DNA from: a virus
Lineage: Duplodnaviria > Heunggongvirae > Uroviricota > Caudoviricetes
Strand: one strand, 5' to 3'
DNA length: 7,271 nucleotides
Virus record (IMG/VR): IMGVR_UViG_2548876942_000003
Span: 1 to 7,271 of that record
Below are positions 1 to 6,426 of the stretch, piece by piece. How positions within the stretch are numbered: the first letter of the stretch is position 1; the number at the start of each line of letters is the position of its first letter. Below the pieces are notes generated by a model. It was not told where the DNA came from and searched no databases. It saw nothing but the letters and a program-made list of their open reading frames with translations. The position numbers and the translations under genes were made by a program.

Positions 1-345
1 ATTTTTCTTTCCAAAATCAGACCCCACATTTAATAAGACAGCATGATTTATTAATTATCTAAAAATCTCTGCAATGATATTGTATTACATAAATCTTCAA
101 ATAACATTAATCATTCTATCTTGAAACTTGTCTTAAACAAGATTACCTCTTTACTCTGCTGAGTCAAACAGCCTAGCCCACTCACTTGTATCACTCATCT
201 TTAACATCGCAGCGTAGTTTCTAACTGGAGCATACCGAATATGACCGCTATTAACATTATGCCGTAACTGCATATTTAGATATTGGATTAGGGGCATCGC
301 GCTGACAGAACTCAAATGCGGGCTCTTTGCCGCCCGCCCCCGCAG

Positions 346-389
346 AATCACGCTATCCGACGCAACCAGCTGCGACGGATAGCGTGATT
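346..389. terminator. Strong stem-loop 5 nt beyond the gene A stop codon; possible terminator or RNA-stabilising hairpin
   Basis: Seen in sequence: perfect 14-bp inverted repeat AATCACGCTATCCG (346-359) / CGGATAGCGTGATT (376-389), with an inner 4-bp stem CGCA/TGCG (361-364/371-374) and 6-nt loop. On the + strand it is followed by TTAATTCATTCTTT (moderately T-rich); on the - strand it is followed by G/C-rich sequence, so a U-tract exists only for rightward transcription. Function is inferred. Confidence 0.4.
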
Positions 390-3963: not shown

Positions 3964-4353
3964 TTAATTTACTGCGTTATCTGGCGCGGGTGGTTTGTCG
4001 CGTATCGCCTGAATTTCGGCGCGTGGTGCGGCGTAGTCCTCAAATTCCCACGGCATTGATGCTGCAAATTCGGAAAGGCGCTTAATGCCCATCAAAAGGC
4101 ACGTTTGCTCCTTTTCGGTTAGATTTTCGTAAGTACAACCCAGCTGTTTGGCGGTCAGCTTCGGCATTCCGGCTATGTATCTGGACGCATCGTTTGCCAG
4201 GATGAAAATCACCTTTTTACAGGCATCATCCAGGCGGTTAAAACGGGTTGCAGTGTCGTTCACGCGTGAGACGTTCAAACTTGCTTGCAGTCGAGCCCGT
4301 TGCTCTAAGAACTGGCGACGGCCTGGCTGTTGTCCTGTCTTATCCATCAACAT
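3964..4353 (-). CDS. Hypothetical early-operon protein (about 129 aa), function unknown
   Basis: ORF in the early-operon orientation. The ORF track begins at a GTG (4359); I prefer the ATG at 4353-4351, which is preceded by GGGGAGGTGG with good spacing. Tightly packed, 15 nt after the stop of the upstream ORF. No motif I can recognise. Confidence 0.55.
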   Translation of the reverse strand: MLMDKTGQQPGRRQFLEQRARLQASLNVSRVNDTATRFNRLDDACKKVIFILANDASRYIAGMPKLTAKQLGCTYENLTEKEQTCLLMGIKRLSEFAASMPWEFEDYAAPRAEIQAIRDKPPAPDNAVN

Positions 4354-4368
4354 AACCACCTCCCCGAA

Positions 4369-4662
4369 CTACGCAAAGATGCCCATTAAGCGGGAAAACC
4401 AGCGGCGCTTATTACGCGGGCGCGACATAAACGGTACACGGCAGTTTTTAACAAATTGAACATCTGCCGCTTTAGGCTGGAAGAACCGCCCGTCCGGGGT
4501 TTCAATCCAGCCGCGTTGATGCTGACGGTGGGTGATCTGCTGGCCGTGGGTGAGCAGGCTGGCGAGTGAAGGGCACTGTGTTAAGTCCATGTTGATCTCC
4601 GTCATATTGAAAAGATGCCGGGATATAACCCCACGCCCGGCACGTGTTTCCTGTGATAACAT
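4369..4662 (-). CDS. Hypothetical small early-operon protein (97 aa from ATG 4662; alternatively 73 aa from ATG 4590)
   Basis: ORF in the early-operon orientation. The ATG at 4662 has only a weak AGG upstream; the internal in-frame ATG at 4590-4588 is preceded by GGAG with a 6-nt spacer and may be the true start. Basic, Arg-rich C-terminus (RPRNKRRWFSR). No recognisable domain. Confidence 0.45.
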   Translation of the reverse strand: MLSQETRAGRGVISRHLFNMTEINMDLTQCPSLASLLTHGQQITHRQHQRGWIETPDGRFFQPKAADVQFVKNCRVPFMSRPRNKRRWFSRLMGIFA

Positions 4663-4728
4663 CGCTATGCCTGTGTAACTTTGAGCAGTGAATCAGGCAT
4701 AACAATCACCAACACAGAAGGAGTTGTA

Positions 4729-5208
4729 ATGAAATTCAATGTGTTTTTTAAAAAAGACCACGGATCACACTGGGTACTTTCCGATGGTTCCCCCCTCTTT
4801 GAAAGTCCACTATTTGAAACAAGACCTAAAGCCATTGATGACCTTGAGAACTTTGTAGGCCTTATGGAATCGCCAATTTTTATTAAGGCTGGTGACGATA
4901 TTAATTCTGGCGATACAGAAAACTGTCCATCTGTAGTTATTTCTTTAAAACAGCATGAATCGCTATGGGGCTGGGAGTTATTTATCTCAAAAAATGGACA
5001 ACTGTCTAAAGTTACCGAAAGTTCAGGTAATGGCTTTGACTCATTAGAATTAGCAAAGCAAAGTGCCCAGTTTTTTATTAATGCCATTATCGACGCTCCT
5101 ATTCTGGATCAAGCCGATGTCGCTATCCCCGGTATGCACTTCTCAAAATCTTTCGAGGAAACGCACCACATTGGTGACATTCACCCATCCAGTAAATGGT
5201 TCAAATAA
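4729..5208 (+). CDS. Moron-like protein with tandem YegP/DUF1508-like repeats (159 aa), encoded antisense to the early operon
   Basis: The track ORF 4681-5208 starts at TTG; the in-frame ATG at 4729 is preceded by a strong Shine-Dalgarno (GAAGGAG, 6-nt spacer). The region is visibly AT-rich (about 37-40% G+C by hand count of a sample) versus more than 50% in A and dam. The translation shows two repeats whose hydrophobic pattern resembles the YegP/DUF1508 repeat as I recall it (KFNVFFKKDHGSHWVLSDGSPLFESP...AIDDLENFV and WGWELFISKNGQLSKVTESSGNGFDSLELAKQSAQFFINAI). The family assignment is from memory, not a search. Confidence 0.55.
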   Translation: MKFNVFFKKDHGSHWVLSDGSPLFESPLFETRPKAIDDLENFVGLMESPIFIKAGDDINSGDTENCPSVVISLKQHESLWGWELFISKNGQLSKVTESSGNGFDSLELAKQSAQFFINAIIDAPILDQADVAIPGMHFSKSFEETHHIGDIHPSSKWFK

Positions 5209-5212
5209 TCCA

Positions 5213-5560
5213 TCACTGCGGCGTTATCGTTTTTCTTGTGCGAGGTGGAACATCTCGCACGGTTTCTTCATCAACCATCAACTCATAAATTCTGATGCTG
5301 TTATCACCGTTTGATACGTCATCAAATACCTGAAAAAGAAAACTCATGAACTGCTCATAAGTGACGCTAGGTTCAACATACCCACCAGTAACCTCAATTA
5401 ACGGTGTTAGCCCTGAATTATCTGCTAAAGAAACGCAGTCCAACTTATCCAAACGGAAAAAGTAATTACCGCAAGGCGTTCTTTTGTCCTTAATCCGTAT
5501 AAATACATTTGATAACGCTGTATGACTATCTGAGAGCTTAAAGATTTTTGCCGTGTCCAT
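5213..5560 (-). CDS. Hypothetical AT-rich early protein (115 aa) immediately downstream of cox
   Basis: ORF with ATG at 5560-5558, 22 nt after the cox stop codon, same strand as the early operon. AT-rich like the neighbouring plus-strand gene. No recognisable domain, signal peptide or transmembrane segment in the translation. Its stop (5213-5215) lies 4 bp from the stop of the convergent plus-strand gene. Confidence 0.5.
   Translation of the reverse strand: MDTAKIFKLSDSHTALSNVFIRIKDKRTPCGNYFFRLDKLDCVSLADNSGLTPLIEVTGGYVEPSVTYEQFMSFLFQVFDDVSNGDNSIRIYELMVDEETVRDVPPRTRKTITPQ
5238..5268 (+). terminator. Candidate intrinsic terminator for the plus-strand moron gene
   Basis: 7-bp GC-rich inverted repeat GTGCGAG (5238-5244) / CTCGCAC (5254-5260) with a 9-nt loop, followed by GGTTTCTT. 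It begins 30 nt after the TAA of the 4729-5208 gene. A T-tract is present only on the + strand. Short stem and interrupted T-run, so weak. Confidence 0.3.
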
Positions 5561-5582
5561 TTTATTCAGCCCTGTAAGTTGC

Positions 5583-5858
5583 TTATGATGGATTGCCCAG
5601 ACCCAACCACATTAACCACCCTTCCCTAATTTCCTTGGGACGACTCTCATACGCCATTTTCATTCCGTTGTTCCAGGCTGGGAGGTAGACCCAGTACTCA
5701 CCTGCCCGCCCTGAAGTTGATTGCGGATCAGTCATCTCAACTACGGGTAGCTTTCCTTTTTCAATCATTCCCCTTACTGCTGCCGGTGTTTTGCCGATCA
5801 GTTTTGCAAACTCCTGGTACGGGACAGCATCACTAATACTGACAACTTGTTTGCTCAT
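5583..5858 (-). CDS. cox: Cox-type excisionase / lytic-switch repressor of Pc (P2 Cox family)
   Basis: 91-aa ORF, the same length as P2 Cox, with close similarity to the P2 Cox sequence as recalled (PYQEFAKLIGK...GKLPV..MTDPQS.SGRAGEYWVYLPAWNNG...YESRPKEIR.GWLMWLGLG). Shine-Dalgarno GAGGT lies 7 nt upstream of the ATG at 5858. Divergent from the C repressor gene, as in P2. Confidence 0.9.
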   Translation of the reverse strand: MSKQVVSISDAVPYQEFAKLIGKTPAAVRGMIEKGKLPVVEMTDPQSTSGRAGEYWVYLPAWNNGMKMAYESRPKEIREGWLMWLGLGNPS

Positions 5859-5981
5859 CTGCTAACCTCGTATCTAGATCTAACCAATGGGTTTCAAAGT
5901 TCTTTAATGGGCTTTGATGCACATTGACAACATCTAAAACCACATTAGAGAGTTTCGATAATATTAGAGGATCTTGATAAC
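5859..5981. promoter_or_regulatory. cox-C divergent intergenic switch region (Pe/Pc, operator region)
   Basis: 123-bp spacer between the divergent cox and C start codons. Besides the Pe elements it contains a plus-strand perfect TTGACA (5924-5929), a plus-strand TTTAAT (5903-5908) that could serve as the Pc -10 in a face-to-face arrangement, overlapping palindromes ATCTAGAT / TAGATCTA (5873-5883) that include a GATC, and one Cox-box-like TTAAAG on the minus strand (about 5902-5907). Pc cannot be placed uniquely from sequence alone. Confidence 0.6.
5944..5969. promoter_or_regulatory. Direct repeats ATTAGAG flanking the Pe -10 region; candidate C-repressor operator half-sites
   Basis: ATTAGAG occurs at 5944-5950 and 5963-5969 (extended ATTAGAGAG / ATTAGAGGA), 19 bp apart. 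One copy overlaps the candidate Pe -10 and the other lies just downstream of the predicted start. P2 C is known to bind direct repeats flanking the Pe -10; the assignment here is by analogy. Confidence 0.4.
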
Positions 5982-5988
5982 ATGTCAA
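5954..5988 (-). promoter_or_regulatory. Candidate early promoter Pe (sigma70-type) driving cox and the early operon
   Basis: Seen in sequence on the minus strand: perfect -35 TTGACA (plus-strand TGTCAA, 5983-5988, overlapping the first codons of C), a 16-bp spacer, and -10 TAATAT (plus-strand ATATTA, 5961-5966). Predicted start is near 5954, giving a leader of about 95 nt to the cox ATG. A GATC (5970-5973) sits in the spacer. Assignment as Pe is by analogy to the P2 switch. Confidence 0.5.
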
Positions 5989-6281
5989 CGCCCATAAGCG
6001 AAAAACTAGCGTTAGTTCGTGAGTCTGAGCGACTAAACCGGAAGCAATTCGCTGAAATAACAGGAGTTCCTTACAGTTCTCTAACTTATTATGAGAGCGG
6101 AAGAACTACGCCCCCCACTGACGTAACAATGAAAATTCTCCAGCACCCCAGATTTAGCAAATACACGTTGTGGTTTATGACCGATCAGGTTGCTCCCGAA
6201 GCCGGTCAGATAGCACCGGCCCTCGCACACTTTGGGCAAGATGTAACAACATCGCAGCACTCAGACCAAAAGATTGGTTAA
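5982..6281 (+). CDS. C: Immunity repressor C (P2 C family, 99 aa)
   Basis: 99-aa ORF, the same length as P2 C, with strong similarity to P2 C as recalled (ISEK..L.R.SE.L.R.Q.A..TGVPY..L.YYESGR.TPPTDV.M.ILQ.P.F.KYTLWFMT.Q.APE.GQIAPALAHFGQ). Shine-Dalgarno AGAGGA upstream. Divergent from cox and followed by int, as in P2. Confidence 0.9.
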   Translation: MSTPISEKLALVRESERLNRKQFAEITGVPYSSLTYYESGRTTPPTDVTMKILQHPRFSKYTLWFMTDQVAPEAGQIAPALAHFGQDVTTSQHSDQKIG

Positions 6282-6318
6282 CCATTCACCAGGCGCATCT
6301 TTATTACAAAATTTGTTT

Positions 6319-6350
6319 ACTTGTTGCCAAATACAACAAGCACAACAAGT
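6319..6350 (+). repeat. Inverted plus direct repeats in the C-int spacer (possible attenuator or protein-binding site)
   Basis: ACTTGTTG (6319-6326) is the reverse complement of CAACAAGT (6343-6350), an 8-bp stem with a 16-nt loop. ACAACAAG is directly repeated at 6333-6340 and 6342-6349. Followed by a short TTTGTG. Lies in the 145-bp A/C-rich spacer between C and int. Confidence 0.3.
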
Positions 6351-6426
6351 TTGTGAAATCTAAGCGCAAGGGAAAATTAACAGCAGCAAAGAAAACACAA
6401 CCTAGCACCATTCATTTGGGGGTCTT

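Follow-up and report, generated by a model that had tools for sequence, protein, structure and literature searches.

The window analysed here, a stretch of 7,271 nucleotides from the virus record IMGVR_UViG_2548876942_000003, comes from a P2-like (Peduoviridae) prophage, of which it is the early/immunity region, and it raises a simple question: what is the small gene that directly follows cox in the early operon? A sequence-only reading had taken this 115-codon frame, called X115 below, for a candidate early accessory or anti-defence gene. Our analysis indicates, with a probability of about 0.9, that X115 is a genuine gene and the lytic-strand half, transcribed from the early promoter Pe, of a compact low-GC accessory module of ~1 kb (~4600-5582) between cox and fil, the other half being a convergent gene, Y159. 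The earlier reading was right in treating X115 as a real early gene but had missed this partner. Among the P2-like (Peduoviridae) prophages of Enterobacterales, a minority carries the module.

Table 1. Features of the window and related elements at other loci (positions refer to the window unless a locus, L number, is given).
Feature	Position	Strand	Match or remark
Integrase	6427-	+	
C-type HTH repressor	5982-6281	+	
Pe-like promoter	5988->5961	-	TTGACA-N16/17-TAATAT, sigma-70-like, upstream of cox
Two 19-nt direct repeats at Pe	5944-5981	-	ATTAGAG..., resembling repressor operators
cox (excisionase/repressor)	5583..5858	-	Pfam Phage_Cox, E 5e-43; upstream neighbour of X115 in the same operon
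Shine-Dalgarno-like AGGG of X115	5570..5573	-	weak; 9 nt 5' of the ATG
X115, 115-aa protein-coding gene	5213..5560	-	phrog_10410; RefSeq WP_000379073.1; first gene after cox in the Pe early operon
GC-rich hairpin	5236..5262	+	10-12 bp stem, 3-nt loop, then TTTCTTC; terminator-like
Y159, convergent 159-aa gene	4729..5208	+	phrog_9021; WP_000671519.1
Shine-Dalgarno AAGGAG of Y159	4718-4723	+	strong
Inverted repeat upstream of Y159	4661..4706	.	CTATGCCTG (4665-4673) / CAGGCATAA (4694-4702), N20 spacer
Second conserved GC hairpin	4617..4641	-	GCCGGG...CCCGGC, then ATCTTTTC; ~20 nt upstream of fil
fil (phage 186 Fil family)	4369..4590	-	next early gene past the module
h131 (131 aa), Dam methylase and replication protein gpA genes		-	beyond fil
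IS3-family insertion	L002 2495-3708 = window 5248-5250		
phrog_6315 cargo, 160-161 aa	L024 5324-5809	-	
phrog_6315 cargo, further loci	L025; L028-L030; L043 2237-2719		
YYxNGxHAGN family	L043 1973-2203; L059 10783-11253		
YYxNGxHAGN family	L151 3001-3645		N-terminal half, = P0042
YYxNGxHAGN family	L008 5001-5552		C-terminal 76 aa of P0003

Since a sigma-70-like promoter and direct repeats lie upstream of cox (Table 1), X115 is the second gene of the early leftward operon, in agreement with its earlier description as promoter-proximal. The DNA of the window is present at 99.9% identity in 19 of 5426 complete E. coli genomes, where the copies are complete-looking prophages of ~33 kb between yegQ and yegR. 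When compared with three relatives (L003, L008 and L012), the C repressor is 74-77% identical while int, cox and fil are 92-100% identical, and such low identity amid conserved genes indicates an immunity swap. The X115/Y159 pair in L003 shows a divergence jump similar to that of the repressor.

X115 starts with an ATG at 5558-5560, separated by 22 nt from the cox stop codon (5583-5585), which confirms the 115-aa frame as first read from the letters. The ribosome-binding sequence upstream of it has a counterpart, GGGAGAGG, in the relative L007. The GC content of the gene is 0.40, lower than that of cox (0.49), fil (0.56) or the genes h131, dam and gpA (0.51-0.54), which makes it compositionally foreign among the early genes, and the encoded protein is acidic (pI 4.9). 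Residues 1-115 align with positions 1-115 of the phrog_10410 profile (E 2e-80), which the remote family members P0051 and P0058 match as well, and tblastn found X115 to be 100% identical to an E. coli ORF annotated as WP_000379073.1, "hypothetical protein". A search of 5.8 billion proteins yielded 22 clusters of 64-99% identity from Escherichia, Citrobacter, Salmonella and Kluyvera, nearly all of them 115 aa long; a profile search of 1.8 billion cluster representatives yielded only 15 members of the family, some of which are 23-29% identical. The reading frame is retained down to 23% identity, and pairwise dN/dS values of 0.04-0.26 (pairs with unsaturated dS) show that X115 is a genuine gene under purifying selection.

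At the same time X115 is an accessory gene. Salmonella phage SI7 lacks it, cox abutting fil with no gene in between, despite a fil-h131 flank that is 96.7% identical to the window, and in E. coli it is as rare as the 19 genomes above imply. When 50,697 deposited phage genomes were searched by tblastn, nothing matched at E <= 0.01, so X115 is not a core early gene of P2 or 186; homology of that kind would have removed the accessory interpretation, which stands. Among 185,579 species-representative genomes there were 71 pattern matches and no confirmed one. The family is thus tiny, and it was found only in P2-like early regions; other P2-like phages carry different small genes in the slot after cox. 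The family itself is already catalogued, X115 matching phrog_10410 over 115/115 positions and being present in RefSeq as WP_000379073.1, but these entries come without function, context or partner, and the pairing and cis elements described below are absent from them. The literature that we searched does not describe the cox-fil slot of P2-like phages or its contents, and full-text searches by accession and PHROG id returned no paper on the X115 or Y159 families.

The stop codon of Y159 lies 4 nt from that of X115, and the two genes thus meet tail-to-tail. Y159 is under purifying selection (dN/dS 0.13-0.41), and its family is as small as that of X115, with members on the same contigs. Its candidate fold is a tandem YegP/UPF0339-like one made of two beta-beta-beta-alpha repeats, from which it differs by an extra conserved C-terminal tail (IGDIHPSSKW) when set beside YegP/UPF0339/DUF1508 proteins. 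There was no match to Pfam PF07411 at E <= 0.1, hhalign against E. coli YegP gave a non-significant probability of 0.3%, and Foldseek found nothing, so the similarity to YegP is unconfirmed by Foldseek or sequence methods. Tandem DUF1508 domains have been proposed to act as nucleic-acid sensors in Menshen (PMC12065111).

At every inspectable locus with a relative of Y159, a relative of X115 lies tail-to-tail with it at a gap of 0-20 nt. These pairs come from E. coli, Salmonella (L003-6), Citrobacter (L153), Serratia (L151), metagenomic/IMG/VR contigs (L007, L011-L020, L152) and L101. They include remote ones (L022, L026, L027) in which X is 23-29% and Y 25-33% identical, and whose partners are Y159-like by hhalign (99% and 96% probability). 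The location of the pair varies: it lies past an extra gene in L007 and past fil in L151, and L152 carries it in another early operon altogether. The pair, the inverted repeat upstream of Y159 and the second hairpin relocate as one unit. In divergent phages the pair (X 56-75%, Y 52-60%) is better conserved than its flanks (cox 37%, gpA 25-46%), while among Salmonella prophages that are nearly identical it has diverged much further (X 76%, Y 63%) than fil (100%) and cox (96%). As its divergence is uncoupled from that of the flanking genes, the pair has its own history. A decayed module was seen in L019 (4001-4551), where X115 is split by a frameshift and Y159 is recognisable in its C-terminal 65 residues only.

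The gene opposite X115 can be exchanged. Citrobacter braakii keeps X but has a 91-aa gene (phrog_32592), unrelated to Y159, in place of the latter, the breakpoints falling directly past the hairpin and directly past the inverted repeat; X115 is here extended by a new tail into a 183-aa read-through protein. A Moellerella-type subfamily has as partner a membrane protein of 161 aa (phrog_6315), which matches NCBIfam SLATT_4 weakly (E 1e-4, below cutoff). This cargo gene is preceded by a 39-aa ORF in L025/L029 and by a 46-aa ORF in L043. X proteins that are 97% identical (to P0055) have a Y-like partner in L101 and the SLATT-like 161-aa partner in L028-L030. Since near-identical X proteins occur beside different cargo, X115 is not strictly Y159-specific, and the idea of a strict Y159-specific antidote is weakened. 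Inverted repeat and cargo are also found together in P2-like phages in which other small genes replace X115.

Two kinds of morphogenetic-protein fragment were seen in such early operons. In other P2-like phages (Table 1), small proteins of a family marked by the motif YYxNGxHAGN either take the place of X115 or are fused to it, and they match part of the portal protein (phrog_68, E 7e-7 to 1e-5) as well as the prophage's own portal gene (E 6e-6). Homology between this family and X115 is unsupported (hhalign probability 2%, E 0.02 over 21 columns). The second fragment is a protein of 139-141 aa encoded directly after cox in some relatives (L007 2018-2437, L151 4132-4557), whose resemblance to the capsid scaffold/protease gpO is confined to the N-terminal part of gpO (Pfam Phage_GPO, E 8e-10, in L007; a precomputed Phage_GPO_N annotation in L151).

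The hairpin that had been noticed at the 3' end of X115 is real. It falls within the final 50 nt of the ORF, where the codons specify ETVRDVPPRT, but it looks like a putative one-way intrinsic terminator of Y159 on the + strand and not like one of X115. The 12-pair stem is followed by a U-tract, itself weak, on the + strand only; on the 3' side of the - strand there is an A-rich run, AAGAAAAAC. Across nine loci 93% of the cells of the stem are paired, and one pair varies between A-U, G-U and G-C, the G-U pairs being compatible only with + strand RNA. Remote relatives carry non-homologous GC hairpins at the equivalent place. Because a terminator-like arrangement exists on the Y159 strand alone, X115 codons that are conserved (ETVRD..PRT) would double as the terminator of Y159, and since on the - strand the A-rich run follows, transcripts from Pe should read through. 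The loop of this hairpin is the exact site of an IS3-family insertion, with AAC duplicated, in 7 of the 19 E. coli genomes, among them that of O45:H2 strain FWSEC0003. The insertion replaces the last ~11 codons of X115, leaves Y159 intact and should sever the early operon from fil, dam and gpA. Disruption of the frame in close relatives had been named as a sign of a spurious ORF; it is found to a marginal extent, in these seven genomes, but elsewhere the frame bears the marks of purifying selection.

How might the two halves work together? Y159 is co-directional with C and int, from which we infer that its strand is the lysogenic direction and that of X115 the lytic one. We propose that the prophage would express Y159, or another cargo gene of the slot, for as long as Pe is repressed by C. 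Once Pe fires, upon infection or induction, read-through of the hairpin would yield a transcript antisense to the whole cargo gene, and X115 protein would be made. X115 would then neutralise or switch off the activity of the lysogen-expressed cargo, leaving the phage's own lytic cycle unharmed (self-immunity), and the antisense read-through would be a second layer of cargo shut-off. That X115 is the lytic-phase counterpart of a lysogen-expressed cargo gene is the most economical reading and the one we favour among those considered, though tentatively and with the odds somewhat against it. It would account for the constant tail-to-tail pairing, which extends to the remote pairs, for the movement of the module as a unit and for the one-sidedness of the hairpin, and the slot holds cargo of a conflict-system type, including the 161-aa protein with its weak SLATT_4 match. 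However, neither X115 nor Y159 matches a known defence or anti-defence family; genes 4 nt apart would be co-inherited regardless of any interaction; relatives of X115 live beside SLATT-like or 91-aa partners as well; expression of Y159 in the lysogen is putative, the -10 region of its putative promoter being poor (AATCAC); and seven of the 19 E. coli genomes combine a truncated X115 with an intact Y159.

The logic proposed for X115/Y159, a prophage-encoded protein and a counter-factor that acts at the phage's own lytic phase, would be the same as in two known systems. BstA/aba is a prophage defence with self-immunity during the lytic cycle in which aba is a DNA element (PMC8585504); TERi of Listeria phage phi10403S is likewise a prophage defence with self-immunity, and the TerI-like activity apparently comes from different genes of that locus (bioRxiv 10.1101/2025.02.27.640495). 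The gene orientations fit this type of self-immunity, Y159 being co-directional with C and int and X115 belonging to the Pe operon. There is no sequence or fold relationship to either system, however, and X115 differs from aba in being a candidate protein factor rather than DNA, and in not being tied to a single cargo. If the proposed scheme is true, strand and a one-way terminator would provide a compact separation of lysogen protection from protection of the phage's own lytic cycle, and the module would offer a testable handle on the function of YegP/DUF1508-like proteins. The P2 toolbox, which is being mined for defence systems, would also gain a new slot, a new YegP-like cargo and a new family of counter-proteins.

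Alternatively, X115 could be a stand-alone early anti-defence or host-takeover protein that acts independently of its neighbour, as the sequence-only reading had it. The gene is the second of the Pe operon, small, acidic, low in GC, patchy and rare, and P2-like phages that lack it can have different small genes at that site behind cox. Furthermore, X115 is intact beside three unrelated cargo genes, which implies that its function does not depend on Y159. On the other hand, relatives of Y159 were never seen without X115, and position and size are generic arguments. X115 also bears no likeness to a known anti-defence protein or fold. The earlier remark that it contains no recognisable motif was borne out: no match was found in Pfam, NCBIfam, PADLOC or PDB sequences, and neither the profile search of 1.8 billion representatives nor hhalign against its partner revealed an annotated relative. 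X115, Y159 and their remote relatives likewise matched no defence HMM of PADLOC-DB 2.0 (E <= 0.1-1). AlphaFold2, given 19 homologues, produced a beta-beta-beta-alpha-beta model of low confidence (pLDDT 59, pTM 0.52), with which Foldseek found nothing in the PDB below E 1.6, and no likeness to characterised anti-defence inhibitors emerged from Pfam, NCBIfam, PDB sequences or Foldseek with this model. Longer relatives (P0042, P0047-49, P0052, P0003) have no Pfam domain in their N- or C-terminal extensions, and X115 has no paralogue elsewhere in the same prophage. What supports a stand-alone anti-defence role specifically is position, size and charge only, and we regard it as doubtful. The computation presented here points neither to an anti-defence activity of X115 nor to a surprising function, and should the counterpart scheme fail, X115 would be a real, ordinary orphan accessory gene for which the anti-defence label is unwarranted without experiments.

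A third explanation, that X115 regulates its own module by binding the inverted repeat or the RNA hairpins and thereby controls the opposite-strand promoter or relieves termination ahead of fil, draws on the two remaining cis elements. The inverted repeat flanks a -35-like hexamer, TTGAGC (4681-4686), of which TTGAxC is conserved, and 6 of its 8 pairs have changed on both sides with the symmetry kept (12 loci; 0/500 shuffles). It recurs in L003, L007, L012, L016, L018, L020, L022, L026, L008, L024, L029, L151 and L152, and may serve either as an operator, bound by a dimeric factor, or as a stem in RNA. The second hairpin marks the far end of the module; it covaries, has its U-tract on the early strand and is overlapped by an alternative hairpin (CACG/CGTG in the window, CCATG/CATGG in relatives), and from these features it looks like an attenuator or terminator that the Pe transcript meets ahead of fil and the genes for replication. 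RNAalifold energies of the inverted repeat and the second hairpin are equal on both strands, and no Rfam family was found in window positions 4200-6400. A conserved repeat that travels with the module, a poor -10 of the kind seen in activator-dependent promoters and a U-tract hairpin with an overlapping alternative in front of fil would all suit a regulator.

Phage 186 offers a precedent: its cII gene lies between apl and fil, and CII activates a promoter on the opposite strand through inverted half-sites that flank the -35. P2 orf78 and 186 cII, each the first ORF after cox/apl in its early operon, are what we take to be the positional counterparts of X115, and in the window, too, a gene on the opposite strand has a -35-like hexamer enclosed by a covarying inverted repeat. 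Unlike CII, however, X115 is an acidic protein with no HTH or other known DNA-binding domain by Pfam. The repeat, moreover, is found whatever the cargo and persists where other genes replace X115 (L035, L043, L059, L068), so X115 is unlikely to be the only protein that reads it; its half-site also stays nearly constant (TATGCCTG) between phages in which the identity of the X proteins is down to 27%. Altogether, a role of X115 as regulator of the module seems unlikely.

About equally unlikely is that X115 is an early lytic helper outside any conflict, acting in replication, the lysis-lysogeny decision or host physiology, with the neighbour an unrelated moron that shares the terminator. Its company of early genes (cox, fil, dam, gpA) would agree with such a role, as would the cargo swaps and the partly independent assortment of the two halves. 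X115 is nevertheless dispensable for this type of phage, given its absence from SI7, and its rarity and foreign composition are not those of a core helper.

That X115 and Y159 form a toxin-antitoxin or addiction pair appears improbable. The pairing is tight, both genes are small, and at the RNA level there is an overlap of their 3' ends, a trait of some type I systems; yet the genes converge instead of forming an operon, and in the lysogen X115 would be under repression. A type II system was rejected on the grounds that the genes are not co-directional and that no toxin or antitoxin domain was found. The truncated X115 beside an intact Y159 in seven of the 19 E. coli genomes argues against Y159 being toxic without X115, and replacement of the cargo is tolerated as well. 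Finally, a spurious ORF in AT-rich DNA, antisense to nothing, would explain the lack of a known domain and the low-confidence model (pLDDT 59) but is ruled out by the full-length PHROG match, the frame kept to 23% identity, the dN/dS values and the conserved start and Shine-Dalgarno sequence.

Returning to X115 as one half of a paired module, we asked how the cox-fil slot relates to known sites of variation. Hotspots of P2-like phages have been described between gpA and the portal gene (old/tin) and in the tail genes (Z/fun), with a minor one between int and gpA (PMC9122126, PMC13586616); of the defence systems recognised in P2-like prophages, 8% lie in the int-gpA interval (PMC13586616), which agrees with the counterpart reading of X115. 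The cox-fil slot shares with these hotspots its low GC, its patchiness, the replacement of cargo between conserved boundaries and the int-gpA location, but none of its genes is recognised by PADLOC. X115 is best viewed as an accessory gene in a phage diversity hotspot, and the architecture of the module could prove to be new if self-immunity were confirmed. A more far-reaching picture, which we consider rather unlikely, is that the cox-proximal slot is an undescribed two-faced mini-hotspot. One strand would carry conflict cargo expressed in the lysogen (YegP-like, SLATT-like and other genes) and the other early-lytic counter-genes (X115 and the small proteins resembling portal or scaffold fragments), the two being insulated by the one-way terminator within the X115 coding sequence and governed by the shared, covarying operator-like repeat. 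X115 would then found a new family of lytic-phase self-immunity or counter-defence proteins without a known fold.

Elsewhere in the prophage, L150 shows a 925-aa hypothetical protein (27584-30361) in the classical gpA-portal hotspot, and window positions 1-350 are the start of the same gpA-proximal region. L150 also carries an AbiH-family gene (4919-5884) between yegQ and the tail-gene end of the prophage, opposite the integrase; together with the 925-aa protein, this gene indicates that the prophage carries other likely defence cargo.
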